A stretch of DNA of 64,000 nt, taken from IMG/VR virus record IMGVR_UViG_3300037295_000263, positions 64,001-128,000 of that record; one strand, given 5' to 3'. Positions within the stretch are counted from its first letter, which is position 1. Every line of letters starts with the position of its first letter. Position numbers and translations under genes: made by a program. The notes beneath the pieces are model-generated. The model did no database searches, was not told the DNA's origin, and worked only from the letters and a program-made list of their open reading frames with translations. Shown piece after piece: positions 20,830-57,235 of this stretch. The DNA is from a virus (lineage: Duplodnaviria; Caudoviricetes).

Positions 20830-20855
20830 TTTATTATATTTATTAAGAAGAAAAC

Positions 20856-29238: not shown

Positions 29239-29975
29239 TAATATACTCCTTTTCCGACAGCAGATTGCTGTAGTTTAATGTTATCGAAAAACTCTTTCTT
29301 TGTAGCTGAGTCATTTTTAAATGCTCCTCTCAGAATAGTAGTTTGTGTTAATGAGCTTGTAGCCATAATTCCTCGATTTGTACAACATCCGTGTTCTGCT
29401 CCTATATGCACGCCGACATCGCTGGATCCAGTACAGCGCATAATTTCACGAGCGATATCCATAGCTAATTCTTCTTGTAGTGTTCCTCTGCGCGAACACC
29501 ATTGCGCTAGCCGAGAATATTTACTGAGACCGATCAGTGTATCGGCCGCAAGGATCCCAATGTATGCAACACCAGTTACTGGTTGATGATGGTGACTGCA
29601 TATACTTTTTAGTTCGCTACGCACTACCAACATGCCTTCATATCTGTCTATTGTATTATTAGGAAAGGCTGTTGCGTCTGGTGCTGGATCATAACGACCA
29701 GCCATAATTTCGTTAAAATACATTTTTGCCAATCGCCGTGCAGTACCTTTTGAATTAGGGTCGTTTTCGCGGTCAATTAAAAGTGCATCCAATACACCTT
29801 CGAACGCTTTTGCAGCATCATCGATTAATATTTCTTTATCTTCGGCATTAATATACTCGCTGATGTTATCTCCTGCCCAGAATCTTTTACCATCTCGCTG
29901 CATAGCCATTCGAATTGCGCCACCGAGATACGATTCTGTGTATCCGTTGTTGTCTAGATCTTTGCTGATATCCAA
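29238..29975 (-). CDS. folE: GTP cyclohydrolase I FolE
   Basis: TARRLAKMY, SICSHHHQP, GLSKYSR, QEEL, AEHGCCTNRG; TTG start after GGAG. Confidence 0.9.
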   Translation of the reverse strand: MDISKDLDNNGYTESYLGGAIRMAMQRDGKRFWAGDNISEYINAEDKEILIDDAAKAFEGVLDALLIDRENDPNSKGTARRLAKMYFNEIMAGRYDPAPDATAFPNNTIDRYEGMLVVRSELKSICSHHHQPVTGVAYIGILAADTLIGLSKYSRLAQWCSRRGTLQEELAMDIAREIMRCTGSSDVGVHIGAEHGCCTNRGIMATSSLTQTTILRGAFKNDSATKKEFFDNIKLQQSAVGKGVY

Positions 29976-34911: not shown

Positions 34912-36611
34912 TTAATTTCATTTTCCAACTGATCAAGTTTAAGTTTTTCTTCTTCAGAAAATTCCCCGTCGTCATGTAATGTTGATGTGTCGTCGGATAC
35001 TTCCTTAAATAATTTAAAAAAATTATTACTAGAATTAACTGTCTTTTTACCTACCGCTCCTCGAGTTCCAGGTATAGCTTGCCAGAATTTATCATAATAA
35101 TCGATAATAGCAATGGCAGATTCCCTATCTTTTGCAGCAAAAATTTCATTTACTATGTCTTTAAAGTAGGTCCTGTTAAATTTCTCATCTACTAACATTG
35201 CAGGACATAACCCGGCATCGTACTGGCGATTAGCTTCTTGCACAGCACTAATATGCATCCATACATTATGGCCCATCATAATAGCATACGTGAAACTGTC
35301 CCAGCTAGTTTTGTTTACTTTACCCATCCTGTTTACGTTACCCGGTGCATAAACACATATTTCGTTCATCTTAACACCGTCTATAACTGGGCTATTTGTA
35401 AAGTTTTTAAAATGTCCATCTTGCACTAAGACGTCTCTGAATAAACGGGTATCGGCTGCGTATTTTTTGTCGTCAATACTAGGCAACATTCTGTAGATCC
35501 ACTTTTTCCGGTCTGCAATTTCTGTTTGGACATAGATTTGTCCATTTGCTGTTGCAAGAAACGGTGAGGCGCAATCAAAAGATATGGTAAAGTTTTCATT
35601 GTGATGTTTCCTTATAGCACGTTGTATATCGGTTAATAATAAAGCCCATTCTAGTTTACTAGTTCCTAGAAAGTGCATCCAGTCTTGCTGGCCTTTTTCT
35701 AGCAGACCATCGAATTTTAAAGCAACCAGTCTTCGTAATACCAAGTCTACGTCGCACATATTTTGTCCGCCCATCGCCCAACCATTAAAAGCTCGATCAC
35801 CGTAAATTTTAGGATCACAAAAATCTTTCATTTTATTATACCAGTCGTCTGCTTGACCATGATGTTCACCTTGCAGAACATTTAAAAATTTACAAGCACC
35901 AGTACGATTCTTGATAAAATATTCATTGTTATATTTGGTGGCCATTACTGCTTGATCATAATCTTTGACTCCGCTATTTTTGGCGCCGATAGGACTGCGC
36001 CCCACCCATGCTGGGATATCAAGTACCATACCATAATCCATTAATGCATCCATCCAAGTTAACACTTGTTCTCGCTTTTTTTGAGCAGCATCTAATTTTG
36101 CTTGATATACTTTGACGTGGTCAATTTTGGAATATTTTATAGCTCTTTTTTTGTCCGTTTTAGGATTACCAGTAACAGGATCTATTATAGGAACTAACTC
36201 GATTCCTTTAGCAACGGCATCTGCCATTAATGCAGCAACTTCGGGACCGGTAGGGTCCTTCCATTCCCCTTCCCATACTCCTTTGCCGATCTGGAATCCG
36301 CCCGAGTCGCCTAATACCCAACTGTTTGTACGGTCTCGATTTCTAAACATAGATTCTCTGTCGTCATTTTTATTAAGATCCAAATTTGCATGTCCTGCAG
36401 AATACAAGCAATGATCGAAATTAAACAGCCCGTTTACTGGATCTAAAAAATTAAGACCTTCGACATCCGTTACAAAATTTTGAGGAATTCTGCTTGGTTG
36501 TACATACGGGTATCTATGTCTTTGATATCCAATAAACGATGCATAGAATCCTGATGTAGCAGGAAGAAAGTATGCATAGTCGTTTTGAGTTGCTGTTAAA
36601 TTTTTATTCAT
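34908..36611 (-). CDS. dpdA: TGT-fold deazaguanine DNA transglycosylase (DpdA-like)
   Basis: LGDSGGFQ, LDIP, LNVLQG, GWAMGG, MHFLG, SFDCASP motifs of the TGT/DpdA family; clustered with folE and queE. Confidence 0.7.
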   Translation of the reverse strand: MNKNLTATQNDYAYFLPATSGFYASFIGYQRHRYPYVQPSRIPQNFVTDVEGLNFLDPVNGLFNFDHCLYSAGHANLDLNKNDDRESMFRNRDRTNSWVLGDSGGFQIGKGVWEGEWKDPTGPEVAALMADAVAKGIELVPIIDPVTGNPKTDKKRAIKYSKIDHVKVYQAKLDAAQKKREQVLTWMDALMDYGMVLDIPAWVGRSPIGAKNSGVKDYDQAVMATKYNNEYFIKNRTGACKFLNVLQGEHHGQADDWYNKMKDFCDPKIYGDRAFNGWAMGGQNMCDVDLVLRRLVALKFDGLLEKGQQDWMHFLGTSKLEWALLLTDIQRAIRKHHNENFTISFDCASPFLATANGQIYVQTEIADRKKWIYRMLPSIDDKKYAADTRLFRDVLVQDGHFKNFTNSPVIDGVKMNEICVYAPGNVNRMGKVNKTSWDSFTYAIMMGHNVWMHISAVQEANRQYDAGLCPAMLVDEKFNRTYFKDIVNEIFAAKDRESAIAIIDYYDKFWQAIPGTRGAVGKKTVNSSNNFFKLFKEVSDDTSTLHDDGEFSEEEKLKLDQLENEIK

Positions 36612-37421: not shown

Positions 37422-40091
37422 TTATTCAAAAGAAAATAAGTTTACAAAATTGTTGTCGCTTCTTGTAGATTTAATATCCCATTCGAGAACACCGATTAAG
37501 TTTTCTAATTTCTCATCAATAACAGCAGTTTCCATTTCCGCGTCATTAAATGGCAGATCTTTGAACCACTGCGGTAATCTTAATTCGTCGACAGGATACG
37601 CAACACTTGTATGACCTAATGGATTACTTTTTAATTTACAAACAATGACCTTTGCACCGTCTGTAATGTTTATACTATATTTGTCATCCATCATGCGTTT
37701 AAGAGTGTTCCAGTTGATACTAGCTCTAACATGCCCTGGCATATTTGCTTTACCTGCGGTTTTCTCTTTAGCTTGATACAGCGTAATATTATTAGCACGT
37801 TTTGGGCTACCCTTTTCCCATCCGGGCCTTAGTTTAAATTTAGTCCGGAATTCACAAATATGTGCTAGTACTTGTTCTTTTTCAACACCGTTAAGAACCA
37901 TAGTTAGTACTTCATTTAAAAAGTCTTGAATTACAACTGGAGTATCTGACCTTTTAAGATCTAGCCCTAGTGCTTTAATCTTGCCAGGCAATCCATTTAC
38001 ATCTGCTCGTTTTCCTTCCTTATCGTAATAAAGAACTGCATACCTTTTCTTTGTAATAAACAACCCTTTAGATGCAACTAATTCTCTGCCTGCCCGGATA
38101 ACTTCTCCTCTGGATTTAGGACAATGAAATGCATCTTGCATAAATTTAGGAAATGTACTATTCACTTCCTCACCGATAGTATCATACAGTTCAACAATCG
38201 ATTCTTTATTCCATGATAATTTCCCTAAATCGATTTCTTTCTTTAATGTAGGATACGCTGAAAAATAACAACTATCAGTATCTCCATAAATAATCGATTT
38301 TCCAGTATGACTAAATTCACCAGTAATAATCTCGTTAACTTTCCCGGCCATGTGTCGTGCAATTGCTCTGCCAGTTAGAGTAGTTGACTGTCCAATCCGC
38401 TTGTCGAAAAATCTACATCCTGGATTCAGAATTGCACCATATAAACTGTTTAAGTTAATTTTCTTTACTAATTGCCGTTTATCCCAATATTCTTCTTCGA
38501 TTTTATTACCAGCAGCAATTGCATCCTTTAGCTTACTTTGCATTTCTTTACGTTCAGCGTACCATCGTTTTAACAGTCCGGGAATAATTCCTTCCGACTC
38601 GTAGGTAAAGATTGTGCCGTTGGCACTTAACGTCCACGGCTGGTTGCTGTCAAAAATTAAGTCGTGTATTTGTGCAGCCGATAATGTATCGCTTCCGCCG
38701 TTTTCCCAATCTATTTGAATATCTCTTCCGGCTTCTCTGCTCATTACTGCGCTATATTCTAAACTACCAAATATACCTTCCCATGCTGCCGCGAATGATT
38801 TTCCTTTTGCTATCTGTGAATCGATAAAGTCATTAGTGCCATCTTGACGTAACTGTCCTACGATAGTTTCAGGACCCATGTTAAGTGCTCGAATAGCACT
38901 AGGATACAGTGAATTAATATCTAACGATCCAATCCATTCGTGTATGCCTTTTTTAGGATATGCAACATACGCACCTGCTGCTTGATTAGTTTCATTGGGA
39001 TCTCTGTGTTTACGATTAGGAACTATCATTCCTCTTTTATGTGCTTCATTGATGATAGCTTGTTCGGTAACAGCTACTGCTCCCATGGTAGTTTGTAACA
39101 ACACTGTACATTCGTGTGCCAACGTATTAGCGAGATCTAGAAATTTTAATTTTCTATCTAAACTATCTAACAACATAGTATCTTGTCTGTTGTATTCGAT
39201 AAATGTTTTAAAGTCGTTATTATATAATTGATCCAGCGATCCTTCATATTGTGTCTTAGTTTCTCCTAGCTCATATTCTGCAATAGAATTCAAACTGTAG
39301 CTATGACGTTCTTCATACGTATATTTGCGATACAACTCTAAACTATCTAAGTGAACACGTCCTACTAAATCGTAAGTACTAGCAGTCTTTCCGTATTTTT
39401 CATACTCTCTCTTTTTTGGATATTGGCCCCACAAGCAAAATCGTTTAGTATCTTCTTTGCTAAGGACTTTGGTAACTCTATTAACAGTATAAGGAATATC
39501 AAAGCCTTCACTATTCCACCCACTTAACACATCAGCATCTTGTATTAAATCTAAAAACGAATCTAACATTTCCGATTCACTTTTAAATAAAATAGTGTTT
39601 GGGAAATCTTTTACTTGGTGCGTAGCCTCTTCCATAGACAATGTTTTTGGCGGTATTGCTAAGCATACTAAAGTATCGAGCCATTGTAAATGAACTGCTA
39701 TTGCAGTTATTGGCATAAATGCATCTGCAGGCGATGCATATCCTCGTTCTGGGTCAAAATCTACTTCAATGTCAAAGAACGCTACGTTAAGTTTCGGAGC
39801 ATCTTGATTTAGGTAATTATCTTCTAGACAGCGATAAACAGGGTTGATGTCGCTTTCGTGTAATTTCTTATTATTGTGTATTGCCATTTCTTTTCGGTGC
39901 TCTTTTAAGTTCCTGGAACTTACCCGACTCAATGGCTCTTTTTTTATTGATTGAAACTTTCCCTTAACATCATAGTAGTAAAATAAATGTCTAGCAGGAA
40001 ATTCTTTGTAATGCCTCTTTCCATCAGTATCTCGTTCTACAACGTTAATTGCATCTTGATCTCTATTATAAAATGCATCTACATAACTCAT
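37422..40091 (-). CDS. gp43: Family B DNA polymerase (T4 gp43-like)
   Basis: Exo FDIEV, GWNSEGFDIPY, YNRQD; Pol SLDINSLYPS, KINLNSLYG, YGDTDS, KKRY; C-terminal FVNLFSF. Confidence 0.95.
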   Translation of the reverse strand: MSYVDAFYNRDQDAINVVERDTDGKRHYKEFPARHLFYYYDVKGKFQSIKKEPLSRVSSRNLKEHRKEMAIHNNKKLHESDINPVYRCLEDNYLNQDAPKLNVAFFDIEVDFDPERGYASPADAFMPITAIAVHLQWLDTLVCLAIPPKTLSMEEATHQVKDFPNTILFKSESEMLDSFLDLIQDADVLSGWNSEGFDIPYTVNRVTKVLSKEDTKRFCLWGQYPKKREYEKYGKTASTYDLVGRVHLDSLELYRKYTYEERHSYSLNSIAEYELGETKTQYEGSLDQLYNNDFKTFIEYNRQDTMLLDSLDRKLKFLDLANTLAHECTVLLQTTMGAVAVTEQAIINEAHKRGMIVPNRKHRDPNETNQAAGAYVAYPKKGIHEWIGSLDINSLYPSAIRALNMGPETIVGQLRQDGTNDFIDSQIAKGKSFAAAWEGIFGSLEYSAVMSREAGRDIQIDWENGGSDTLSAAQIHDLIFDSNQPWTLSANGTIFTYESEGIIPGLLKRWYAERKEMQSKLKDAIAAGNKIEEEYWDKRQLVKKINLNSLYGAILNPGCRFFDKRIGQSTTLTGRAIARHMAGKVNEIITGEFSHTGKSIIYGDTDSCYFSAYPTLKKEIDLGKLSWNKESIVELYDTIGEEVNSTFPKFMQDAFHCPKSRGEVIRAGRELVASKGLFITKKRYAVLYYDKEGKRADVNGLPGKIKALGLDLKRSDTPVVIQDFLNEVLTMVLNGVEKEQVLAHICEFRTKFKLRPGWEKGSPKRANNITLYQAKEKTAGKANMPGHVRASINWNTLKRMMDDKYSINITDGAKVIVCKLKSNPLGHTSVAYPVDELRLPQWFKDLPFNDAEMETAVIDEKLENLIGVLEWDIKSTRSDNNFVNLFSFE

Positions 40092-43303: not shown

Positions 43304-43564
43304 CTATTTAGCATCTCCGAACCAATGTTTAAACCATTCGTCTGTTCCTGGTTTTATACTATTCTCCCTTGCTACTTGTCCTTTATTGCTGCCCTGTATG
43401 ACAGGTAGTGTTAAACTTCTATATGCAGATAGCGCAGCCTCTCCTCCTAATCCACCTAGCTGTCCGACAGCTTTTAATTGGTGGATTGGATCATCCGATG
43501 ATAATATACAATCATGGTCTTCTGACTGAGTTATATTTGCTGTTGTAATTCTAAATTGTTTCAT
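43304..43564 (-). CDS. Hypothetical protein
   Basis: Start set at MKQFRITT (43564); ends IKPGTDEWFKHWF. Confidence 0.55.
   Translation of the reverse strand: MKQFRITTANITQSEDHDCILSSDDPIHQLKAVGQLGGLGGEAALSAYRSLTLPVIQGSNKGQVARENSIKPGTDEWFKHWFGDAK
43305..43311 (-). promoter_or_regulatory. Late-like motif CTAAATA
   Basis: 5 nt before ATG 43299. Confidence 0.55.
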
Positions 43565-44150
43565 TTCCAAGACCCATTCCTTCCCTAACTCTATTATACA
43601 TCTCTCTAGAATATTTATCATTTCCAACAGTGTTGGTAAACTCGGAAAAATTGCCTTCTACTGCATGCTTTCTTGCGGTAGAAGCACTAATGCTTTCGAT
43701 ACCATCTGCATCAGGATCTCGATCTCCTGCAGATTTAAAATCTAGTTGATCAAAGTGGTAAAATCCATGGGCTTTGCCTTCTACTCCGTTATATGCAACC
43801 AACGTGTTATAAATTGATTTCCTGTCTGATCCAGCAACAAATGTTGCATTTCTATATCCAGATTCGTACAAAAATACAGCAACTTTTATTATAGTGGTTA
43901 GACTTTTATTGTTAACAACGTGACTTGCATATTTAGGATTCATTGCGCCAATAAATTTAATTTTTTCCTCATAAGTTAACGGATTCTTTTCTTTATCTTG
44001 AGTAGAACTTACAAATATCTTGTAATCGTCCCCCAGAGCGGACATGACCTCGAATAAATGAGCATGTCCTCGTGTGGGAGGATTCATTCTGCCAAAACAA
44101 AACGCAACTGTATTAGAATTAGGGTTCTCAAAGAGTTCAATTAGTTTCAT
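43551..44150 (-). CDS. HxGH-superfamily nucleotidyltransferase (cytidyltransferase/NMNAT-like)
   Basis: FGRMNPPTRGH, VAGSDR, SISASTAR. Confidence 0.75.
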   Translation of the reverse strand: MKLIELFENPNSNTVAFCFGRMNPPTRGHAHLFEVMSALGDDYKIFVSSTQDKEKNPLTYEEKIKFIGAMNPKYASHVVNNKSLTTIIKVAVFLYESGYRNATFVAGSDRKSIYNTLVAYNGVEGKAHGFYHFDQLDFKSAGDRDPDADGIESISASTARKHAVEGNFSEFTNTVGNDKYSREMYNRVREGMGLGNETI

Positions 44151-45046
44151 GATATAAAGTTACATATTTTTGTTTGTACATGAGTAAAGGCACTTTCGAT
44201 TTTAGACAACGACAGATTTTTTTCAATTTCTTTCATAGTTCCTATTTCTCCAGATTTTACAGTAATCATAGATTTAAATATGCCTTGTATTCTATTACCG
44301 CTTCGGGGGTTTGTCAACACCTGTTCTGAAGTTGTTAACAGTTCGTCAAATGATAAACTTAAATTATATTGATATAATAGTTTTCGTAAATCTTCAAAAT
44401 TCTTAGATGTCCATAAAATTTCTTTATTCAATTGATTAAATGTTCCAGGAACGTAACTAACTCTACGTAGCTGTAGTTCAACACTAGACAGATTAAATTC
44501 ATATTCTTGATCGAGTGGTAATTCACTATCTACTTCGATGCCCAACTTTGCAAATAGAATTGAAGGAGCAGTTTCGATAGCTGCAACTTTGACTAGTCCT
44601 AGTATTATACCTTGCTTAGCAGCAGGCAAATCCAAAAATTGTTTCTTAAATAGTGCTTCTGTAGAATCTAACGCAATGATATTGTCGATTTGCACACTAT
44701 ACCCTAACTGTTTGTCATAATAACGAACCGTAACTAGTTCTCCAGTGTTGTATGTCTTTTTACCTGAATGTTTAACAGAAGTAAACGGAACAATAACAGA
44801 ATCAGGCATCTGATTAAAGAATACCACTAATTCTTTTTTAACTGTAGGTTTATCATGAGCCGACTCGACATGTACAATGATATCGATATCACCAAAGCTT
44901 GTTTTGTTAAAATCGGAGTTGTAACTTCCTGAAACGTGCAACGAAACGAACCCTGGAAATTTTGAAATAATGTTGTCGTATGATAACAAAAATTTATCGA
45001 AGTCGGCTCTACTTTTTACCCGATCAGCACCAGTAGACCCGCTCAT
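44147..45046 (-). CDS. Pol-beta superfamily nucleotidyltransferase-like protein
   Basis: SGSY...GDIDI plus a third acid in VQID. Confidence 0.65.
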   Translation of the reverse strand: MSGSTGADRVKSRADFDKFLLSYDNIISKFPGFVSLHVSGSYNSDFNKTSFGDIDIIVHVESAHDKPTVKKELVVFFNQMPDSVIVPFTSVKHSGKKTYNTGELVTVRYYDKQLGYSVQIDNIIALDSTEALFKKQFLDLPAAKQGIILGLVKVAAIETAPSILFAKLGIEVDSELPLDQEYEFNLSSVELQLRRVSYVPGTFNQLNKEILWTSKNFEDLRKLLYQYNLSLSFDELLTTSEQVLTNPRSGNRIQGIFKSMITVKSGEIGTMKEIEKNLSLSKIESAFTHVQTKICNFIS

Positions 45047-46032
45047 TATAATTGTGCTAACAAGTTTGATGTAGCAGGAAGAAATTTTCCTGACAAACTC
45101 AATTTATCTTTCCTTAAAATCCATTCCTCTTGCAAATTATTAGGAATATCTGCTCGTGTAGAATCAAGTATTTTAAAATATACATTCAAAAGCTGAGAAT
45201 AGTCTGCAGGTTTCATTTTTTCTTTAAGCAGTGCATGCAACTTAAAATAGTCTTCTGCATCTTCTTGTAATATATCAAACCCTAATCGTGCGCTTAGCAT
45301 TGCAAGTGCTTGACCTGGATCGTGTGCGACAACAAGATCAGTATCTTTATCTTTTACCCCAGTAACATGATTAAATGATAAATTAGCTACTTGGAATGCC
45401 GATAACATTAATTGTGTGCGATGCAGGCCCTTAACATTCGAAGTTAACAAACGCGGAGCAGAGTAATAAGAAAATTTAAGCCATGGCAGATCACCCACCA
45501 TCCAATCTATCTGAACATTTATATCTAGCTTTTTTCCAGAAGCATTACTTTGTGGGTAAAGCCCAAACATGTTTCCAGTGGAAACTTTTTTCTCGTCAGC
45601 TTTCAATACAGGTGCTTTGATGTTAATTTGTTTTGCTAATACTTTTAAAAATGCTTTCATTCTTAATTGAGAAGGTGTGGAAGTACGGGCTCGCTTAGTT
45701 AGTAATTGGAATTCAGCTAACACTTCAGCCGGGTCTACTCCCCATTCTGCAATAGCATTGTCTGACATATCTTTGTCTAAAATAACCGATACATCCACTG
45801 CTAAATCAATATCTCCTGATTCGTCTACTTTACCAACAGAACCTACAGGATTAAAGTATTGTTCATTAAAGATTTTAGACTTATTTGGAAAAATTGCAGC
45901 TAACTCTTTAAAATACTCATTTAATGTTGGGCTAATATTTTCTTTCTTAATGCCACTAGTTTGCCCTTTGAAAACGTTTCCGCCTTCAACTACTAATACT
46001 GGTTGTATGTCTGTGTGTTGATCAATCTTCAT
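45046..46032 (-). CDS. Pol-beta superfamily nucleotidyltransferase-like protein
   Basis: EGGNVF; VGSVG...GDIDL; VQIDWM. Confidence 0.65.
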   Translation of the reverse strand: MKIDQHTDIQPVLVVEGGNVFKGQTSGIKKENISPTLNEYFKELAAIFPNKSKIFNEQYFNPVGSVGKVDESGDIDLAVDVSVILDKDMSDNAIAEWGVDPAEVLAEFQLLTKRARTSTPSQLRMKAFLKVLAKQINIKAPVLKADEKKVSTGNMFGLYPQSNASGKKLDINVQIDWMVGDLPWLKFSYYSAPRLLTSNVKGLHRTQLMLSAFQVANLSFNHVTGVKDKDTDLVVAHDPGQALAMLSARLGFDILQEDAEDYFKLHALLKEKMKPADYSQLLNVYFKILDSTRADIPNNLQEEWILRKDKLSLSGKFLPATSNLLAQL

Positions 46033-46872: not shown

Positions 46873-49185
46873 TTACACTTGGTATATTTGCTCTTCGACC
46901 TTATTTAAAACTTTCTTTTTTCGAGGTGCTCTAGCAATTTTCATGCTTTTTTCTCTAAAAGTAAATTTAGGGCGATCTTCTTCGATAGTAACATCCACAT
47001 ACCCGCCATTTACCAATGCCCCGAATAATACTTCACGGCTCAGTGGAGATTTGATTTCGTTGTCGATTACCCGACCTAGCGGTCTAGCCCCCATCTTGCT
47101 ATCATAGCCTTTTTCGGATAACCACTTGTTTGTTGCATCATCGATGATAATTTCAATATTCTTATCATATAATTGTTCGTTAAGTTCTTTAATAAATTTC
47201 TCAACAATCTTATGCACAATTTTTGTATCAAGTTTAGCAAATTTAATGATACCATCTAATCGATTGCGGAACTCCGGAGGGAAGAATTTTTTAATAGCTT
47301 TATCGTCCTCGCCGTCTTTTGATAAATCGCCAAATCCGATAGTGTTATTTTCGTTATCGCGGGCACCTAAATTTGAAGTCATAATAAGAATGCAATTACG
47401 ACCATCAGCTTGTTTTCCATTCGATCCTGTGACAAATCCGTTATCCATAAACTGCAAAAGAATATTGCTAACATCCGAGTGGCTTTTTTCAATTTCGTCT
47501 AATAACAGCACACAGTTAGGATGTTCTTGTAGCTTAGTAATTAGCTGTCCAGCGTTGTCTTCATATCCTACATAGCCCGGAGGAGAGCCAATTAATCTAG
47601 AAACGGAATGCTTTTCTTGATATTCGCTCATGTCAAACCTTATCAATTCCATGCCCATTTTTTGGGCTAAGGCTTTAGCAGTCTCTGTTTTGCCTGTACC
47701 AGTAGGTCCAGAAAACAAGAAACTTCCTATGGGCCTATTGGGGTTTTTCATGCCTGCCTGCGATACAAAAATTTTGTCTAATAAAGTCTCAACTGCAGTA
47801 TTTTGCCCGTAAACTATCGATTTTAGATTATTTTCTAAATTAGCAAGGTTGTTGCTTTCTTTTTGAGCAACATTTTCCAATGGAATGTTAATCATCTTGC
47901 TTAATTCATAAACAATTTGTTCAACATCTACAATCTGCGTAATTCCTTCTTCGGCAGGATCATCTTTAAGTTTATATCGAGCAGCAGCACAGTCGAGTAT
48001 ATCGATGGCTTTATCTGGAAGTTTTTTGTCTGCCATGTATTTTACACTTAACTTTACTGCCTGTTCGATAGCACCGTCTGTGATTTTTACATTATGGTGT
48101 TGTTCGTAATATCTTTTAATACCTTTAAGTATTTTAACTGTAATTTCGGGAGTAGGTTCGTCGATAGTAACCCGCTGAAACCGGCGCATTAGTGCTCTAT
48201 CTTTTTCAAAATGCTTTCGGTATTCTTCCCAAGTTGTGCTAGCAATCAGTTTAATCAGACCTTTAGTTAACATGGGTTTAATCATATTACTCATATCATT
48301 AGATCCTTGGTTAGACGATCCTGCACCTTGCATCATGTGCGCTTCATCAATAAACAGGATAACTTTTCCTTTTTTCTCTAAAGCAGCCATAACCGACTTA
48401 ACTCTTTCTTCAAAGTCTCCTCGATATTTTGACCCTGCTAACATAGCACTAATGTCTAATGTATAAACTTCGTGATCAAGAATAAACTTAGGAACTTTTT
48501 TCTCAAATATTTTTCGAGCAATACCTTCCGCAATGGCTGTTTTACCTACGCCAGGGTCACCGACCATAAGAACATTACTTTTGTTACGTCGAGCCAATAC
48601 TAATTGTATTTTTTCAATTTCTTCATCTCGTCCAATTACCGGGTCAATTTTACGTTGCTTTGCTAACGCAGAAAGGTTTGTACAATAAGTGTTGATGACT
48701 TGATCGATTTGAGATTTATTTGGCTGGCTTGTACTATCGTTTGCTGCCTCGGGAAGATTTTCTTGACAATGCTTAATTAATTTTTCCTTAGTAAGACCGG
48801 CCTTAGACATAAAATAAAAACTAAAGCTATTCTTTTCGCTAAGAATGCTTAGTAACAAATCGGAAATGTTTATGTTTTCTCGGTTATTAAATAATACTTG
48901 CGTAAAACAACGGTTTAACACACGCTCAACCGAATTAGTTTTTTTAGGCTTCACCTCTTCATGATCAACTTTAATATCGTTAAGATTTGAAATAATGTAT
49001 TGATCAATATTTGCTTTAATAAATTTCGAATCTGCTCCTGCTTTCTTAATTAATTCGAACGAATCCTCATCCTGCATTATAGAATGTACTAAATGTTCGA
49101 TAGTTATGTATTCGTGTTTATGTAGAGTCGCTAACTCTACAGATTTATCAAAAATCTCTTGCAATTTTTTACTAGGTTCAATCAT
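46873..49185 (-). CDS. clpA: ClpA-like Hsp100 AAA+ unfoldase
   Basis: N-domain HEYITIEH; GDPGVGKT; KYRGDFEER; FIDEAH; GPTGTGKT; DMSEYQEKHSVSRLIGSPPGYVG; IGF loop; no M-domain. Confidence 0.93.
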   Translation of the reverse strand: MIEPSKKLQEIFDKSVELATLHKHEYITIEHLVHSIMQDEDSFELIKKAGADSKFIKANIDQYIISNLNDIKVDHEEVKPKKTNSVERVLNRCFTQVLFNNRENINISDLLLSILSEKNSFSFYFMSKAGLTKEKLIKHCQENLPEAANDSTSQPNKSQIDQVINTYCTNLSALAKQRKIDPVIGRDEEIEKIQLVLARRNKSNVLMVGDPGVGKTAIAEGIARKIFEKKVPKFILDHEVYTLDISAMLAGSKYRGDFEERVKSVMAALEKKGKVILFIDEAHMMQGAGSSNQGSNDMSNMIKPMLTKGLIKLIASTTWEEYRKHFEKDRALMRRFQRVTIDEPTPEITVKILKGIKRYYEQHHNVKITDGAIEQAVKLSVKYMADKKLPDKAIDILDCAAARYKLKDDPAEEGITQIVDVEQIVYELSKMINIPLENVAQKESNNLANLENNLKSIVYGQNTAVETLLDKIFVSQAGMKNPNRPIGSFLFSGPTGTGKTETAKALAQKMGMELIRFDMSEYQEKHSVSRLIGSPPGYVGYEDNAGQLITKLQEHPNCVLLLDEIEKSHSDVSNILLQFMDNGFVTGSNGKQADGRNCILIMTSNLGARDNENNTIGFGDLSKDGEDDKAIKKFFPPEFRNRLDGIIKFAKLDTKIVHKIVEKFIKELNEQLYDKNIEIIIDDATNKWLSEKGYDSKMGARPLGRVIDNEIKSPLSREVLFGALVNGGYVDVTIEEDRPKFTFREKSMKIARAPRKKKVLNKVEEQIYQV

Positions 49186-49679
49186 TTTAGGTTCTTCCTT
49201 AGTTTCTTCATAGCTAATTGTAATTTCAAAGGCGATACGTTGTCAACGAAGCAAACACCATTCAAGTGATCCAGCTCATGTTGAAAACATCTAGCAACGT
49301 ATCCGTCCATAGTCACTGTGTGCGTGTTGGCGTTGCTATCTTGGTATTCTGCAGTTATTTTTGAAGGTCGTTTAACGTTCAAATACAGTCCTGGATAACT
49401 AAGACATCCTTCTCGAAACAAGCTAGTTTCGGTACTTTCTTCGAGAATAACGGGATTGAATACACCAAATGGCATTGGAAATCCGTCGATGTTAAAACTG
49501 CCCATTACAAAAACACGATCGGTTAGCCCAATTTGATTAGCAGCCAGACCAATGCCGTTATTCGATATCATCAAGTTTATCATATCTTGTTCGAGTTGTT
49601 TTGCATTGTTATTTACAGAAAAATCCCAAGCTGTACTGGACATAACTAGACTTTCATGTTCTCCTAAATTATACTCCAT
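49182..49679 (-). CDS. def: Peptide deformylase
   Basis: GIGLAANQ, EGCLS, QHELDH. Confidence 0.93.
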   Translation of the reverse strand: MEYNLGEHESLVMSSTAWDFSVNNNAKQLEQDMINLMISNNGIGLAANQIGLTDRVFVMGSFNIDGFPMPFGVFNPVILEESTETSLFREGCLSYPGLYLNVKRPSKITAEYQDSNANTHTVTMDGYVARCFQHELDHLNGVCFVDNVSPLKLQLAMKKLRKNLK

Positions 49680-50496
49680 CTTTAATTTCCTTTATTTTTT
49701 GTAATTGTTCAACAGATAAATTTGTCGGAATACTAGTTGATATTTTAATTAGCAAATTTCCTTTATCAGAAGATCGTAAAATTGGCATTCCTTCTGCTCG
49801 GCAGCTTAATATTGTTCCATGCTGTGTTCCTGATGGAATTGAAATTTGAAATTGTTTTTTAGACAACGTTTCGATAGTTAGTGTACTTCCTAATATAGCG
49901 TCCCATACTGAAATAGATTGTTCGTATATTAAATGATTACCTTCTCTGTGAAAGATTGCGTGGGGTAGCACATTAACGTTTACAATTAAATCTCCTGCAG
50001 GAATGCCAGGAATACTGTCATCACCCAAGCCGTGGTATTTTATCTGTTGCCGATGTAACACACCGGGCGGAATATTAATTTTAATAGTTTTATTTGAGTT
50101 ATCCGGAAGAGTTATGTCAGCACCAATCTCTTTTCCTACTAATACATCCTCGAGTGTAACATTTACTACAAAATTAAAAGATTTGTTTACCTGTTGACGT
50201 TGATGATGAAAGTTAAATCCAAAATGACTAAAGATATCATTAAAATTTCCAGAATCAAAATGGAAATCTTGTGAATTAGTAGGATTTTTAGATGAAGCTG
50301 GGTCGTGCCCAGCATCTATCATACTCTTTTTTTCTGGATCACTTAAAAATTCATAAGCTTGGTTTATTTTTTTAAAGTGTTCTTCATCACCTCCGCGATC
50401 CGGATGGTGCTTCATTGCTAATTTACGATAAGCTTTTTTAATTTCTTCAGAAGAAGATGGAGAAGTTAATTCTAGTAGGCTATAGTAATCTTTCAT
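49669..50496 (-). CDS. dnaJ: Class B DnaJ/CbpA-like co-chaperone
   Basis: J-domain with HPD, short G/F region, C-terminal domain with GDL; no Zn finger. Confidence 0.9.
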   Translation of the reverse strand: MKDYYSLLELTSPSSSEEIKKAYRKLAMKHHPDRGGDEEHFKKINQAYEFLSDPEKKSMIDAGHDPASSKNPTNSQDFHFDSGNFNDIFSHFGFNFHHQRQQVNKSFNFVVNVTLEDVLVGKEIGADITLPDNSNKTIKINIPPGVLHRQQIKYHGLGDDSIPGIPAGDLIVNVNVLPHAIFHREGNHLIYEQSISVWDAILGSTLTIETLSKKQFQISIPSGTQHGTILSCRAEGMPILRSSDKGNLLIKISTSIPTNLSVEQLQKIKEIKDGV

Positions 50497-50516
50497 TTAT
50501 ATGCTCGCATAGTATA

Positions 50517-50545
50517 ACTATACTGTAAAAATATTACGTTGTCAA
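50517..50545 (-). promoter_or_regulatory. Sigma70-type promoter TTGACA-N17-TATAGT
   Basis: Near-consensus, upstream of dnaJ-def-clpA. Confidence 0.8.
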
Positions 50546-50551
50546 CTACGA

Positions 50552-50890
50552 CTAGCTAACAGAAGATTTTTTTTCATTCATATACTTGTCAAATATAGCG
50601 TTGGTAACCCATACTCCTATATATCCTACAAAATACCATTCTGTTAATTGCCCCATGACTACAAGATATATAAATCCCCATGTACTAACAATCCATGCTC
50701 CAAACCGTGCAAATTTTTCACTATCGATTTTGTTATTGGTAGAAATTAAATCCTCAAGGTTGATGTTGTCAGTTTTATCTAAATGTACTACAGTCAACGA
50801 AACCATTACGACTAGAATTAATGTAAACAACAACAACCCCATTATGTTTTCAGCATTAAATAATCTTAAAAATTCTGTAATAGTGTCCAT
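50552..50890 (-). CDS. Putative holin
   Basis: Three hydrophobic segments; last gene of the lysis cassette. Confidence 0.5.
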   Translation of the reverse strand: MDTITEFLRLFNAENIMGLLLFTLILVVMVSLTVVHLDKTDNINLEDLISTNNKIDSEKFARFGAWIVSTWGFIYLVVMGQLTEWYFVGYIGVWVTNAIFDKYMNEKKSSVS

Positions 50891-50898
50891 AGTTGCTC

Positions 50899-51159
50899 CT
50901 AGTCTACGCTTTCGAATATTGTTTTTTGTTCTTTATACCACGATTGCCATGCATTCACTTTTGCTTGACATTCGAGATACAAATTATAGTTGTCAGTAAC
51001 AACAACTAATAGGTCAGACATTTTAGTTGTATCGACGGGTACAAGTTGTAATGGAGCACACTGAGTTTTTATACTAGGAGGAATGTCGGGAAATTTACGT
51101 TCGACTATAGTTTGGCATCCTGTTAACAGCATAACAAATACTACAACAAATAATTTCAT
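50899..51159 (-). CDS. Putative o-spanin lipoprotein (Rz1-like)
   Basis: Signal peptide with lipobox LTGC; Pro/Cys-rich mature part; ATGA overlap with the i-spanin. Confidence 0.75.
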   Translation of the reverse strand: MKLFVVVFVMLLTGCQTIVERKFPDIPPSIKTQCAPLQLVPVDTTKMSDLLVVVTDNYNLYLECQAKVNAWQSWYKEQKTIFESVD

Positions 51160-51584
51160 CGAGATGCTCCTGTTGCTCTGTTTAGTATTTCTACAACTTT
51201 GGGATTAATTTGGCAGTTACTATCTAGCTCAGTTGAATATTCTCTTATACTACCCAACACTTCGTATTTTATTCGTTCAACAACTTGCACGCGATCTCTG
51301 TAGACATATTCTATAGAGGCATTAGCCTCTGATGCGCGTTGCTCTGCTCTTGCAATTTCTAATTGCATGTCAGCAAGGCGTTCGCGGTATTCACTATCCT
51401 TGCTAATTCCGCCAGCAAACCACACACCTACTACTGTTAAAAATAAACCTGCCAGAAGAATAGGAGTATTATATTTGCTAATAAACGGAAACTGTTGTAA
51501 AAATACGCTAACTATTATCAGCAATAGGCCGATTAGTAAAGCTGTATAGAAAACACCATCAGGTAAAAACCCAATTAGCCACAT
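51156..51584 (-). CDS. Putative i-spanin (Rz-like)
   Basis: N-terminal TM segments, then coiled coil and a C-terminal Cys; lies between endolysin and lipoprotein. Confidence 0.7.
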   Translation of the reverse strand: MWLIGFLPDGVFYTALLIGLLLIIVSVFLQQFPFISKYNTPILLAGLFLTVVGVWFAGGISKDSEYRERLADMQLEIARAEQRASEANASIEYVYRDRVQVVERIKYEVLGSIREYSTELDSNCQINPKVVEILNRATGASR

Positions 51585-51593
51585 ATAGGTTCC

Positions 51594-52046
51594 TTAAATT
51601 GACAATTCAAAATGAGGGCCGTCGATGAACGGTCTTCTTTTTTGAGACCTTCTTAAATCGATGTATTCGTCCATTGCATCCTGCATTGTAGAATCCCATT
51701 TCCTTATATCTTTTATATGCCAAGCTGCTCCCCATCTTACAGGCACATCAACTTCCATAGCTGCTAATCTTACAGCGTCGGCAATGTTATCGTAAAGATT
51801 CAACTCCCATGACACTCTAGTACCTATATATGCAACTAAATCTACAGCAAGCCCTTGAATGTGTTTTGAATCCATAGTTTGGCTAGCACCTGCTGCTACC
51901 AATTCACGCTGTCGATCTACTGAACGTAATCCTTCAGTAACTCCAAAATCAACTGAAGTATAATTAAAAGCTAACTTAACTACCTGTACTAACGAGTCGT
52001 TGACTCCAGATAGCCTGCTTAGACTTCTTTCCGATAAAATAAACAT
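51594..52046 (-). CDS. Endolysin, M15 L-Ala-D-Glu peptidase (T5 lys-like)
   Basis: TEGLRS..RQ, SKHIQGLAVD, DGPHFEL. Confidence 0.88.
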   Translation of the reverse strand: MFILSERSLSRLSGVNDSLVQVVKLAFNYTSVDFGVTEGLRSVDRQRELVAAGASQTMDSKHIQGLAVDLVAYIGTRVSWELNLYDNIADAVRLAAMEVDVPVRWGAAWHIKDIRKWDSTMQDAMDEYIDLRRSQKRRPFIDGPHFELSI

Positions 52047-52047
52047 A

Positions 52048-52782
52048 TTATAACCTTTTTAATAGTAATGAATTATCGCCATTCTTAAAAAGAAAATGGT
52101 CTTGATACTTGTCTATCTGATAATCTCCTAATACTTTGGTAAGCCAGAAAATCTCACCCATTGCATTAGTATCCAATGATGCTGCTCCTTCTATCACAGC
52201 TTGCGGATTATCTTCAGAAATTATCTCTAACTGAACTGTTTTTCCAAAGGGTTTATGTATTGTAATTATGTTGTTACTAATGGATAAATCATCCATTAAT
52301 GTTTTGTTAAAAAACTGTTTAATACCTTCTGTTTTAATTTTTAAAAGTAAACCATCGTATAGCTGAGGAGTCGAAGGAACTACTTCTCCGAGTACATCCA
52401 TGGAGGCTTCGTGTATTTGCGAATTCTTATGATATTTGAATTTCCAATCATTTATATTGGTTAATTTGTACACCCCATAAGTTAAGTCTTTAATTTGTTC
52501 AGATAATTGATCAGTTCTTTTTATTTCAACGAATATAGAATATTCTCCATTTTCGTTTTCTCCAGAGCTGATATCAGCATCTAATACAAAGTTATATCCT
52601 TTCTCAATAAACTCCATAAGATCTCTTGCAGGCGCCCGATCCTTAGCAGTAAAGCTTATCACACATACGTCTCGATCTTCGCCCATTTTTGATTTATAAG
52701 AATCAACTTCGAAGGTGGGGTATATCATTTCTTGTAAATCGTTAGTACGTAGTCCTTCAAATATCTGTTGGTAATTCTTCAT
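52048..52782 (-). CDS. Hypothetical protein (capsid-targeting-like N-terminus)
   Basis: Start set at MKNYQQIFEG (52782). Confidence 0.6.
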   Translation of the reverse strand: MKNYQQIFEGLRTNDLQEMIYPTFEVDSYKSKMGEDRDVCVISFTAKDRAPARDLMEFIEKGYNFVLDADISSGENENGEYSIFVEIKRTDQLSEQIKDLTYGVYKLTNINDWKFKYHKNSQIHEASMDVLGEVVPSTPQLYDGLLLKIKTEGIKQFFNKTLMDDLSISNNIITIHKPFGKTVQLEIISEDNPQAVIEGAASLDTNAMGEIFWLTKVLGDYQIDKYQDHFLFKNGDNSLLLKRL

Positions 52783-53293
52783 CTGTAATATCCTGTATTT
52801 TTTGTTCTGTGCTGTCTTTACTGGAGGCTTGTATAGTTTGTTGGTTAACAATGTCAGCTACTTTATTTTGGTCAAGATTTCGGTAACCTCTATTAATATC
52901 GTTCATAAGCTTCTTAGGAATAGTTATGCGAACACTCCAAATAGGGGAATAATCGATTTTACCTTTACGAGTTCCTGCTCGAATATCCTCTGGTTTTTTA
53001 ATTTTTCTAACACTTGCTATTTTACTTTCGGCAAATTCTACCTTGCATCCGTAATCAATTAGCCGTGTGCCGGCTGTTGGATCAGGCATTTTGTCGTATG
53101 GCCACATAAATGTACATTCGACAAAGTATCTTTTTTCGTACGGACCACTGACTAATTCCCCATCTATCCAGTTATCGTAAACATACATGTCTAGTTCATC
53201 TAACACTCTTTCAAAATCTTTGAGTAAATTTAAACTATTGTTAGATCCGTATATTTGCTCAATGTTTTGAATAATATCTTTAATATCGGCCAT
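52757..53293 (-). CDS. Hypothetical protein
   Basis: 178 aa; GAGGAG RBS right after a late motif. Confidence 0.7.
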   Translation of the reverse strand: MADIKDIIQNIEQIYGSNNSLNLLKDFERVLDELDMYVYDNWIDGELVSGPYEKRYFVECTFMWPYDKMPDPTAGTRLIDYGCKVEFAESKIASVRKIKKPEDIRAGTRKGKIDYSPIWSVRITIPKKLMNDINRGYRNLDQNKVADIVNQQTIQASSKDSTEQKIQDITDEELPTDI

Positions 53294-53309
53294 AATTTCT
53301 CCTCAAATG

Positions 53310-53317
53310 TATTTATC
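53310..53317 (-). promoter_or_regulatory. Late-like motif GATAAATA
   Basis: Directly before GAGGAG and ATG 53293. Confidence 0.6.
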
Positions 53318-53358
53318 GCCATAATACAAACATAACACTTAATCTTTTTGCTGTTGAG

Positions 53359-53365
53359 TTAAATA
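53359..53365 (+). promoter_or_regulatory. Late-like motif TTAAATA
   Basis: Divergent intergenic region; 5 nt before ATG 53371, upstream of phoH. Confidence 0.45.
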
Positions 53366-53427
53366 AGATTATGCCAGAAACAAATAAAACGTTTGTAACT
53401 GCATATTCCAAGGAGGATTAACCTTAC

Positions 53428-54153
53428 ATGAAGCGTAAAAGATCAGCAGTTCAAAAACCTCAATATACCGAGTCTAATGTAGTAGGGCTTGCACAAGCCC
53501 CAAAAAAGAAGCAACGAGTGGTAATATATCCCAAAAATCTAAGCCAAGAAAATTACTTAATCAAACTCAATGATTTTGATAAAAAGATAATTTTTGCAAT
53601 AGGGCCAGCAGGTACTGGTAAAACTATGCTAGCAGTACAATGGGCAATTGACCAATTAAAAGACGGCATCGTCGAAAAGATTATTATTACTCGACCAGCC
53701 GTTTCTGTTGACGAAGAACATGGGTTTTTACCGGGAGATTTAAATGAAAAAATGGCACCGTGGACTAGACCGATCATGGATGTATTTGCAGAAAACTTTT
53801 GTGCTAAAGATATTGCTTCTATGATCGAAGAAGGTACGATAGAAACAAGTCCGCTAGCATATATGCGTGGTCGAACGTTTAAACATGCAGTAATTATTGC
53901 AGACGAAATGCAAAATGCAACTCCTAGTCAGATGAAAATGTTGCTCACTCGTTTAGGTACAGGTAGTAAAATGGTAGTAACTGGCGATTTACAGCAAGCA
54001 GACCGACCTAGCAATAACGGACTGTTGGAATTCCTAGGGTTATTTACTAACTTTGAAAAACAGAAGTATGTCGATATGTGCCATTTTACTGCATCTGACA
54101 TTGAACGTCATGAAGCTGTAAAGGAAATCTTAAAAATATACAAAGACGAATAG
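53428..54153 (+). CDS. phoH: PhoH-family ATPase
   Basis: GPAGTGKT, ITRPAV, GFLPG, YMRGRT, DEMQN, GDLQQAD. Confidence 0.93.
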   Translation: MKRKRSAVQKPQYTESNVVGLAQAPKKKQRVVIYPKNLSQENYLIKLNDFDKKIIFAIGPAGTGKTMLAVQWAIDQLKDGIVEKIIITRPAVSVDEEHGFLPGDLNEKMAPWTRPIMDVFAENFCAKDIASMIEEGTIETSPLAYMRGRTFKHAVIIADEMQNATPSQMKMLLTRLGTGSKMVVTGDLQQADRPSNNGLLEFLGLFTNFEKQKYVDMCHFTASDIERHEAVKEILKIYKDE

Positions 54154-54181
54154 AATAACGCCGAGCATGCTCGGCGTTATT
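54154..54181. terminator. Perfect 28-bp palindrome, bidirectional terminator candidate
   Basis: AATAACGCCGAGCATGCTCGGCGTTATT between convergent phoH and ferredoxin. Confidence 0.75.
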
Positions 54182-54195
54182 GACGTTTGAAATTA

Positions 54196-54519
54196 CTATT
54201 CCTCGAGAAGATTAATTTTATTGGGTGTTCCGTTCCATTCGGCAGCATCGGGTAACGCTTCTTTTTTTCGAGTAATATTTGGCCATTTTTTGCTAAGCCG
54301 TGTATTAATATCGAGCCAAAAAACTACGTCAATATCGATATCGTTGTCTGTTTTAATAGCATCGACTGGGCATTCGGGTATGCACACTCCGCAGTCTATA
54401 CATTCATCGGGATCGATTGCTAAAAAGTTTGGACCTTCATAAAAACAATCAACAGGACATACTGAAACACAATCTGTATGTTTACATTTAATACAGTTAT
54501 CAGTTACTAGGTGTGTCAC
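54196..54519 (-). CDS. fdxA: FdxA-type (Azotobacter FdI-like) ferredoxin
   Basis: [18 protein letters not shown]...[12 protein letters not shown]; C-terminal WPNIT; GTG start. Confidence 0.9.
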
Positions 54520-55435
54520 GATTCAGCGCCGATAATTTAATAAGACATGCAGCTAAGTTAATTTCCGCATCCGCCACTAGCGTATGATCAACCAGGCCTT
54601 GTTTGATTATTACAATAGCACGGTCTTGTATTATTTCATCTCCGAAAATTTCTATATTGTCATATAACCATCTGTATACTTCTAGCATTTCTTCAGGTTG
54701 GATCTTACCACACAACATCCTTCTTGCATCAGTAATTTTTCCAGCTTTAAACATTTCTACCATATCAAACTTCCAATCTGCGATTCCCGAGTCACCTGCA
54801 GATGGAATACTTAGCTTACCTTCAATTACATTTTGTTGCAATAAGTTGATACATTTACGTAAGTCAGGGTAGGCAGCTCTTACATAGCTATCTAAAGTAT
54901 CGAGATCGAAATCGACATCTTCAGTAACAAGTATAGTTGCTACCCTGGCTGTAAACTCGGTATGATCAATTTTTTCAACATGAAATCCTTGACATCTGCT
55001 ATGGAGAGCTGGAATAATTTTATGAGGATAGTTACATGTAAGAATAAATCTTGCAGTACTATGGTATTCTTCCATAACTCCACGCAACGCTGCTTGCGCA
55101 TTAGGACTTAGGTAATCAGCTTCGTCGAGCAATACAACTTTAAATGGGCCAAACGGGATCATTTGCACAAAGTTAGTAATTTTATCTCTAACATCTTCAA
55201 CAGAGTTTGTACGACTAGCATTAATTTCTAAAACGTCAAATCCTTCTATTCCTATTTCGTTGATTAATATTTTGGCTAACGTTGTTTTACCGATACCTGC
55301 ACTTCCGCTGAGTAGTAAATGTGGTATACTTTTATCAGAAATCCATGTTTTAACTTGACGTTTTTGATTTTCGTCACGGAATACATATTCATTTACAGTT
55401 TTAGGACGATATTGCTCTACCCATAGTTGTTTCAT
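54500..55435 (-). CDS. gp44: Clamp loader AAA+ subunit (T4 gp44/RFC small-like)
   Basis: [36 protein letters not shown]. Confidence 0.9.
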
Positions 55436-55488
55436 AATTACCTTTAATTGTTGTTTGTTTATACTGAAATATAAACACTATTACGCAT

Positions 55489-55875
55489 TCATTGAGAATT
55501 TTCTTTTTCTGCAGTTGTTAAAAATCCAGACAAGTTTGGAGGAATCCACCCTAGTGGTTTAAGAACCTTTCCGTCGTCACGCTTGCGAACCTTTCCGTCG
55601 TCGCCTATCTTAGCAAAGTTAGTGCTCATAACTTCTTTCCAAGCACCTTCTGCGTCAAAACCTGCAGAATGAATGGCACCAATTGTAACAACTAGAATGT
55701 CAATTAGTGCATCCAATGTTTCGATATTATCATTAGCTGCAATTGCATCATTTAACTCAGTTGTTTCTTCTGCTATCAATGAAACGTATAAGTTAAACTG
55801 TTCTTTATTAAAATTATCAACAGTTTGATCGCATGCTTTCATAAACTTAGATTGATCGCGAAATGGATTAGTCAT
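55489..55875 (-). CDS. MazG-like/PRA-PH-like nucleotide pyrophosphohydrolase
   Basis: LIAEETTEL, LDALIDILVV, EVMSTNFAK, DGKVLKP. Confidence 0.75.
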   Translation of the reverse strand: MTNPFRDQSKFMKACDQTVDNFNKEQFNLYVSLIAEETTELNDAIAANDNIETLDALIDILVVTIGAIHSAGFDAEGAWKEVMSTNFAKIGDDGKVRKRDDGKVLKPLGWIPPNLSGFLTTAEKENSQ

Positions 55876-55927: not shown

Positions 55928-56317
55928 TTACATAAAGTCTTCTGGGCGAATGTTTGAACTACTGGTAAATTCTTGACCAATATAAGCATCGGATGGTTTT
56001 TCGTCAGATACTGCAAGTATTCCGGTTACATCTACTCGTTGTATTTCTTTTTCACCTCGGCTGTCTCGAATCTTTACTTTACGAGTCCATCTTCCATGCT
56101 CGATCAATATCCATTGTCCTTCTGATACATCTGTTTGTTTTGGTCCGACTTTATAAACTAACCCCCATCTAGGTTTAACTCCGTGTGCTTGAGCATCATC
56201 ACTTCGAAGTACAATGCCACCAGATGTGACAATTTCACCAAAATCCATATCTGTAATAATCACATTGTCGTGTATTGCACGAACTTCCATAGGTCGTGCT
56301 TCATAGATTGTTGTCAT
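55928..56317 (-). CDS. groES: GroES-like co-chaperonin
   Basis: RAIHDNVII, TSGGIVL mobile loop, VYKVGP, V.EGQWIL. Confidence 0.75.
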   Translation of the reverse strand: MTTIYEARPMEVRAIHDNVIITDMDFGEIVTSGGIVLRSDDAQAHGVKPRWGLVYKVGPKQTDVSEGQWILIEHGRWTRKVKIRDSRGEKEIQRVDVTGILAVSDEKPSDAYIGQEFTSSSNIRPEDFM

Positions 56318-56326
56318 GATATTCCT

Positions 56327-56545
56327 TTATTTTTTGTTAATTCGATCAGCAGCCGTACGATCATTATTGTTGTAATAATCCTGCAAAATTTCTTCTTTAG
56401 TACGGAGAATCTTTCCGCCCGGTCCCAACTCGTCTCCTCTGGCGTTTACGTTAATATTACCTACTGCAGGAGTTAGTTCGTTTTTTAATGCAAGCTTCTC
56501 CATATCAATTTCTTTACCTTTCATACTTGTGTATATTTTACCCAT
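56327..56545 (-). CDS. Hypothetical protein
   Basis: 72 aa; AAGGAG RBS; NARGDELGPGG. Confidence 0.7.
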   Translation of the reverse strand: MGKIYTSMKGKEIDMEKLALKNELTPAVGNINVNARGDELGPGGKILRTKEEILQDYYNNNDRTAADRINKK

Positions 56546-57009
56546 TATTTTTCTCCTTTGAAAAATTCATTTATCGGTATCTCGTATTTAATACTATCGA
56601 TGCGGTGCACTCCTATTAAAAAGAGCACATAACTTGCTACGCTACTGCCTCTGCCTACACCCCAAATAACATTATTACTACGCAATACATCTACAATATA
56701 TTTCATAACATATAAAATGTCTAGCATTTCGTGCTTGATGTATAGTTCTAATTCCTGACTAACTCGATTTGTTTCTTCTTCTGTTTTGCACATTCCGTAT
56801 AAAATTTCTATAAGATTTGGACAATATTGTTCAGGAATGAACCAGTTATTTGGATTTATATCTTTTAACGGAACAGGATAGTTTAAATGCTCATTGTGTA
56901 ATCGAGTTGTATATTGACTTAAATCGTCTGAAGTTTGGCACCGGTCTAAAATATCTGGCCCGTGCCGCATAACTCCTTCTATTAAGTTTTCTATTGTATT
57001 AGTTGACAT
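56545..57009 (-). CDS. Stand-alone fragment homologous to DNA polymerase III alpha (DnaE) palm entry region
   Basis: RVSQELE...YIVD...WGVGRGSSVASYVLFLIGVHRIDSIKY...EFF; stops before the catalytic PDID. Confidence 0.75.
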   Translation of the reverse strand: MSTNTIENLIEGVMRHGPDILDRCQTSDDLSQYTTRLHNEHLNYPVPLKDINPNNWFIPEQYCPNLIEILYGMCKTEEETNRVSQELELYIKHEMLDILYVMKYIVDVLRSNNVIWGVGRGSSVASYVLFLIGVHRIDSIKYEIPINEFFKGEK

Positions 57010-57235
57010 TAATCAATTGATCCAAATCTCCGTTACCGTTATTATTAAATTTTTCACGGTTTCTTTTACTCATTTCCTCTTTATATATTGTAAGAAATGT
57101 TGAGAGTTGTGTCAAGAGGTCAATGTTGCCAAGACGCACTGCAATGTAATATTTTTTTGTTATTTCTTGTATTTTTTCTTCTAAATCAGTATCTTTCATG
57201 TCTGATAAATCGGTAGATAAGGGATGAAAAAACAT
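56999..57235 (-). CDS. Hypothetical protein
   Basis: 78 aa, helical; overlaps both neighbours. Confidence 0.65.
   Translation of the reverse strand: MFFHPLSTDLSDMKDTDLEEKIQEITKKYYIAVRLGNIDLLTQLSTFLTIYKEEMSKRNREKFNNNGNGDLDQLINVN

Follow-up and report, generated by a model that had tools for sequence, protein, structure and literature searches.

What can a phage do with a piece of a bacterial replicase that stops just before the catalytic aspartates, in a genome that also encodes a polymerase of another family? The question is raised by a 154-residue open reading frame (ORF) of an uncultured salt-lake jumbo phage, contained in a stretch of 64,000 nucleotides (positions 64,001 to 128,000 of IMG/VR record IMGVR_UViG_3300037295_000263; hereafter, the window). 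A sequence-only reading had suggested either a non-catalytic mimic or one half of a split protein. We conclude with high confidence that the ORF encodes the small, N-terminal subunit of a minimal family C DNA polymerase specified by two genes, the one for the other subunit lying at a distance. Rather than a decoy, it is a further member of the split Pol III alpha family, which was recognised from sequence in 2021. The features of the window needed for this argument are given below.

37422..40091, minus strand: family B DNA polymerase (PolB) with an exonuclease domain, presumed main replicase
54500..55435, minus strand: RFC-type clamp loader, found at most 3 kb away in 48 of 80 related loci, many of which are truncated
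55928..56317, minus strand: GroES-like gene, a neighbour in 71 of 80 loci
56327..56545, minus strand: downstream 72-aa gene, phrog_14844, not DnaE-like, a neighbour in 74 of 80 related loci
56545..57009, minus strand: the 154-aa ORF, phrog_11127, very probably the N-terminal subunit of a split minimal Pol III alpha (ORF list, Pfam, phrog and structure matches)
56548..56838, minus strand: residues 58–154, DnaE-like palm helices and GS loop, equivalent to about residues 281–396 of E. coli alpha (structure and profile alignment)
56552..56556, minus strand: GGAGA ribosome-binding site of the next gene, inside the KGEK tail
56644..56661, minus strand: GVGRGS motif, in which R120-G121-S122 correspond to the dNTP-contacting R362-G363-S364 of E. 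coli
56839..57009, minus strand: residues 1–57, a phage-specific three-helix N-terminal extension lacking a DnaE counterpart in the structure alignment
56999..57235, minus strand: upstream 78-aa gene, phrog_15348 (weak match), not DnaE-like, a neighbour in 78 of 80 related loci

The kinship with DnaE was evident in profile and structure alignments. The ORF matched Pfam PF07733 (DNA_pol3_alpha) over model positions 14–95 of 260 (E = 7e-12) and phrog_11127 almost to the end of that family (E = 3e-37), and profile alignment placed it on residues 297–396 of E. coli DnaE with a probability of 90%. An AlphaFold model of the protein (pLDDT 87.6) was used for structure alignment, in which residues 58–154 superimposed on DnaE 281–396 (Z 8.8, rmsd 2.8, 93 residues aligned). 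Foldseek searches with each half returned nothing at E ≤ 0.001, the top rows nonetheless all being Pol III or PolC, and an atlas search with residues 1–60 gave only sub-threshold leads. In E. coli DnaE numbering, the ORF ends five residues short of D401. A full-length replicative DnaE unites PHP, palm, thumb, fingers, clamp-binding and OB domains in one chain; neither the 154-aa protein nor its partner has this architecture, and a weak single-sequence search with E. coli DnaE segments as queries found no PHP, OB or clamp-binding domains on the available incomplete contig.

The layout is that of an intact gene. The ORF shares 11 bp with the gene upstream and 1 bp (TAATG) with the one downstream, and the next frame after it in the window is the unrelated 72-aa gene. 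The KGEK tail that follows EFF is not a degenerate NPER; it encodes the ribosome-binding site of the next gene, which is embedded in the C-terminal tail in 54 of 70 relatives as well. In the 70 relatives, a search of all frames in the next 300 nt revealed no DxDxD continuation, and promoter-like and terminator-like sites occurred at chance level. The sequence-only reading was thus right that the gene is intact, that a DnaE segment ends here before the catalytic aspartates, that start and stop codons overlap those of flanking ORFs unlike DnaE, and that the same phage carries PolB.

Length and sequence are both under constraint. A protein search with the ORF yielded approximately 8,000 homologous clusters of 84–270 aa, and every one of the best 120 among these measured 152–158 aa. 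Across 80 viral loci, the N-terminal half (N-half) spans 153–189 aa and always ends in EFF or EFL plus a short tail. Among the 11 closest pairs dN/dS ranged from 0.05 to 0.23, while the median of all usable pairs, 0.30, was set aside because synonymous saturation inflates it. The sequence-only reading had named variable ortholog length with relaxed selection as a refuting outcome; length is conserved and selection is purifying. The R-G-S residues of the GVGRGS motif are invariant in all 73 N-halves compared. At the position of E. coli R390, another dNTP contact, the window protein has E148 (56566–56568, minus strand), and 72 of the 73 N-halves share this glutamate, after which comes a conserved K or R at position 151. 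The equivalent of R396 falls within the unconstrained tail.

The surroundings of the gene recur as well. Its neighbours are those found around gp323 of phage GAP32 and in most related loci, and the contig displays genome features of the group 2.2 type: its PolB, RFC, portal and capsid proteins match those of GAP32, with 68% identity for the capsid. The 78-aa upstream gene is the most tightly linked neighbour (78/80 loci) and could be a third subunit or cofactor. Elsewhere in the window, positions 46873–55875 (minus strand) contain host-like accessory genes encoding a Clp ATPase, peptide deformylase, DnaJ, PhoH, ferredoxin and a MazG-like pyrophosphohydrolase. Two adjoining genes at 44147–46032 (minus strand) have nucleotidyltransferase-like GS...DxD motifs (GDID) and are adjoined by a cytidylyltransferase-like gene at 43551–44150. 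QueE-, FolE- and tRNA-guanine transglycosylase-like genes occupy 27413–29975 and 34908–36611 (minus strand), and a QueD-like gene lies elsewhere in the genome; by their resemblance, these genes together suggest a possible 7-deazaguanine modification of the DNA. Downstream of the tail genes, positions 8768–22070 carry a long cluster of glycosyltransferase-like, radical SAM-like, epimerase and nucleotide-sugar dehydrogenase-like genes.

The half that the ORF lacks is encoded in its relatives. Group 2.2 jumbo phages with PolB have been described as carrying a minimal Pol III alpha split into two distant genes, one for an N-terminal NTP-binding protein and one for a C-terminal Mg- and template-binding protein (Iyer et al. 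2021, PMC7824862). The best cultured matches of the ORF are in Rak2/GAP32/PA5oct-like jumbo phages; in GAP32 the N-half is gp323 and the partner gp282 (phrog_11778), 34 kb apart. Partners of this family have about 190 aa and usually start with MPDIDID, PD(I/V)DID being present in most of the 80 viral loci; this is the motif whose absence from the ORF the sequence-only reading had pointed out. Among 78 partner sequences, the equivalents of D401, K553, D555, R639-P640 and H760, the last being the steric gate, are conserved in all 78, and that of D403 in 77. The partner model aligned with E. coli DnaE 400–784 (Z 9.0, rmsd 3.8, 188 residues aligned), so that the two halves tile the DnaE core as 281–396 and 400–784. 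There is no room in the partner for the index-finger residues R709, R710, K714 and K715, approximately 90 index-finger residues being absent.

The two halves also occur together. By host genus, hits for N-half and partner numbered 34/34 in Escherichia, 11/11 in Pseudomonas, 8/8 in Erwinia, 8/8 in Salmonella, 4/4 in Yersinia, 4/4 in Xanthomonas and 10/11 in Klebsiella, counted by name as hits in a phage collection in which about 40 genomes are named in both lists. Contig G035 carries both halves, separated by 124 kb. So does an Alishewanella phage that, at 142 kb, is smaller than a jumbo phage (OQ508957.1); its two genes are separated by 11 kb, and the clamp loader gene lies in that interval. 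The partner gene has uvsW on one side and primase/helicase on the other, being within 4 kb of a primase in 62, of uvsW in 56 and of a helicase in 36 of 80 loci, and the adjoining DnaG-type primase has kept recognisable Toprim motifs. The partner was found through the GAP32 annotation; it was not among the matches listed for an E. coli DnaE 395–760 query, and scanning viral contigs with a single protein yielded no locus.

Why, then, is there no partner beside the window? Motif, phmmer and profile searches in six frames gave nothing significant on the contig (G000), which is linear, 216.7 kb long and an estimated 59% complete. The contig also lacks terL, ssb, uvsX, uvsW, primase, helicase, ribonucleotide reductase and topoisomerase. 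A close relative, G039 (capsid 90.5% and PolB 82% identical), is collinear with it over approximately 95 kb and extends past its left end, where terL, ssb, uvsX, uvsW, the partner, primase and helicase are found. In five contigs with close capsids, the partner lies 58–87 kb beyond the capsid gene, and G000 ends 28 kb past its own. The absence of the partner is thus most likely an effect of the incomplete contig, which lacks the block that carries it in relatives. Of 33 N-half contigs searched that lacked a partner, 32 were fragments (5–61% complete, and thus uninformative), the other being the complete phage G003 discussed below.

A candidate for the missing block is available. The sole sequencing run holding the window sequence, and hence its likely source, is a salt-lake metagenome that also contains a 22.5-kb contig collinear with the missing block and including pieces of the partner gene. 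Two 30-mers of this contig match exactly one IMG/VR contig, G050 (IMGVR_UViG_3300037295_000225; 36 kb), on which terminase, ssb, uvsX, uvsW, partner, primase and helicase are encoded. The partner gene is the following.

G050 7333–7899, minus strand: C-terminal Pol III subunit, 191 aa, with all catalytic residues

The tetranucleotide correlation between G050 and G000 is 0.87, against 0.81–0.86 for 36-kb pieces of G000 itself, and the two have no genes in common. No end overlap between them was found, and the likely source run holds at least two abundant related phages. On the basis of complementarity, composition and co-occurrence, without overlap, G050 is probably the missing block of this phage. 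A search for the PDID-containing part, as proposed in the sequence-only reading, came up empty on the incomplete contig and succeeded in the relatives and in G050; discovery of the complementary half elsewhere was an outcome which that reading had named as refuting it.

Structural modeling supports association of the halves as a predicted heterodimer. Folded with the partner of G039, the window protein scored 0.91 against 0.12 for the best control, a mark that 58 of 80 solved complexes attained, as did 2 of 110 mismatched pairs; the partner used is non-cognate, and halves of a split gene may score by likeness to solved DnaE structures. The runs agreed in at least 95% of contacts, with a partner pLDDT of at least 87. 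In the model, the GS loop (116–117) contacts the DxDxD strand (6–8) of the partner, C-terminal residues of the N-half pack on its steric-gate helix, and W56-F57 of the N-terminal extension also touch it. The conserved surface of the N-half is the one predicted to face the partner.

This evidence also bears on other accounts of the gene. A stand-alone decoy that inhibits the host replisome or binds nucleotide or pyrophosphate through GRGS, as the sequence-only reading had inferred, would explain why no partner was found on G000 and why G003, a distantly related 202-kb T4-like phage classed as complete (capsid 33%), has an N-half (66% identical) and no detectable partner. The first point loses its force with the missing block. 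As to the second, the N-half gene of G003 and its 76-aa neighbour, the counterpart of the tightly linked 78-aa gene, lie together in a 1563-bp insert (G003:C1:96899-98472) flanked by near-identical 11-mers; the genes at either end are broken, and removal of the insert rejoins a flanking lipoprotein-like gene in frame. The insert looks like a passenger or an assembly chimera; it is not evidence for a stand-alone function, to which it leaves a small probability. Moreover, DnaE contacts epsilon, clamp and tau through its PHP and C-terminal domains, regions that the N-half lacks, and the conserved surface of the N-half is predicted to be taken up by the partner. Co-occurrence with the partner largely refutes the decoy and, with it, a non-catalytic mimic or solitary nucleotide binder, and we consider these very unlikely. 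The other half of that early proposal, a split protein, has been borne out by the complementary half in relatives and G050, the tiling of the DnaE core and the co-occurrence. The palm fold kept in the N-half might also let it complement, or swap into, a fragment of the host DnaE rather than pair with a phage protein; host DnaE forms one chain and relatives carry a phage partner with intact catalytic residues, which makes this scarcely credible.

Two further accounts concern how the gene came to be short. Being a fragment of a 1160-aa protein, the ORF could be what decay has left of a captured dnaE, or could result from an assembly error or a frameshift; the thousands of homologous clusters with their uniform best matches, the shared terminal motif in 80 viral loci, dN/dS well below 1 and the GAP32-like neighbours leave this idea with hardly any probability. 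Alternatively, the halves could be made into one chain by a split intein, trans-splicing or ribosomal joining, and split-intein DnaE does occur in cyanobacteria. There is no room for an intein here, as the ORF ends four residues past EFF and the partner starts at DxDxD, and the genes of the two halves are 11–124 kb apart. Weak evidence in the same direction comes from eight longer close homologs of the N-half, whose additional parts are unrelated proteins or the product of the downstream gene; no natural fusion of N-half and partner is among them. Joining into one chain is accordingly a very slim prospect, and the two-gene enzyme is retained as the best explanation.

In such a two-gene enzyme, the N-half would supply the GS loop (R-G-S) and the helices backing the palm, and the partner would bring the DxDxD and KxD catalytic strands, the RP motif and the helix bearing the steric gate; joined non-covalently, the two would form one Pol-beta-fold active site. 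The pair totals about 345 aa, compared with 1160 for DnaE. It has neither PHP nor the parts that serve clamp, OB and tau binding, and most of the thumb and index finger is gone. From the anatomy of DnaE, a distributive, non-proofreading enzyme is therefore predicted. The GS motif in this ORF and the three catalytic aspartates, K553 and the steric-gate histidine in the partner family and the G050 copy are all present, whereas the basic triphosphate-binding residues R390 and R709/K714/K715 are not, so the activity may be weak or different. Replacement of these residues by K151 or by the RPxK motif is a guess. The retained steric gate points to the use of dNTPs, and because this gate is kept and a DnaG-type primase with Toprim motifs adjoins the partner, the split polymerase is unlikely to be the primase.

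Activity and role are inferred, and the likelihoods that follow hold within the split-polymerase explanation, gene neighbourhood being weak evidence for a role. Extension of primase-made RNA primers with dNTPs, followed by hand-off to PolB, is our tentative first choice, at somewhat less than an even chance. Short-patch synthesis in UvsX/UvsW recombination-dependent replication or repair is a rather unlikely but serious candidate; some other nucleotidyl-transfer chemistry appears improbable, and an assembled but catalytically dead scaffold more improbable again. As a best guess, the pair would work beside PolB as a distributive polymerase that extends primers or fills gaps.

The window protein resembles the gp323/gp282 system of GAP32 in its domain boundaries, GxGRGS motif and EFF/EFL end, in its phrog_15348, phrog_14844, GroES-like and clamp loader neighbours, and in the PolB of the genome. 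It differs in belonging to a shorter subclade (154 versus 172 aa, 38% identity over 135 aa) with another N-terminal extension, in coming from an uncultured salt-lake phage, and in having its partner off the available contig. With bacterial DnaE (PF07733) it shares the palm helices and GS loop (E. coli 281–396) and, together with the partner, the catalytic aspartates, K553 and steric-gate H760; in contrast, the phage pair consists of two chains without PHP, clamp-binding, OB or tau domains, with thumb and index finger largely deleted and Glu at the R390 position. In cyanobacteria, dnaE is likewise carried by two distant genes, whose halves are spliced into a full-length chain; the phage pair, unlike these, has no intein and is a minimal enzyme. 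A possible analogy is offered by B. subtilis DnaE, a primer extender ahead of PolC (PMC3664799): both would be family C enzymes beside a different main replicase, and the phage partner gene adjoins primase/helicase, although the B. subtilis enzyme is full-length with a role shown there and that of the phage pair is proposed by analogy.

As a practical lesson, the apparent lack of a partner is most likely an effect of an incomplete contig. The split Pol III core is very widespread and strongly conserved, and no experimental study of the halves was found in the searchable literature. Both subunits have fewer than 200 aa and are easy to test, and the cultured phages GAP32, 121Q and PA5oct are better material than an uncultured fragment. 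That the approximately 345-residue pair is an active enzyme, extending the RNA primers of the primase with DNA and handing over to PolB in the manner of eukaryotic Pol alpha or B. subtilis DnaE without a thumb, an index finger or the usual triphosphate arginines, is possible though doubtful; if true, no functional Pol III core would be smaller, and phage replication would divide its labour in a new way.
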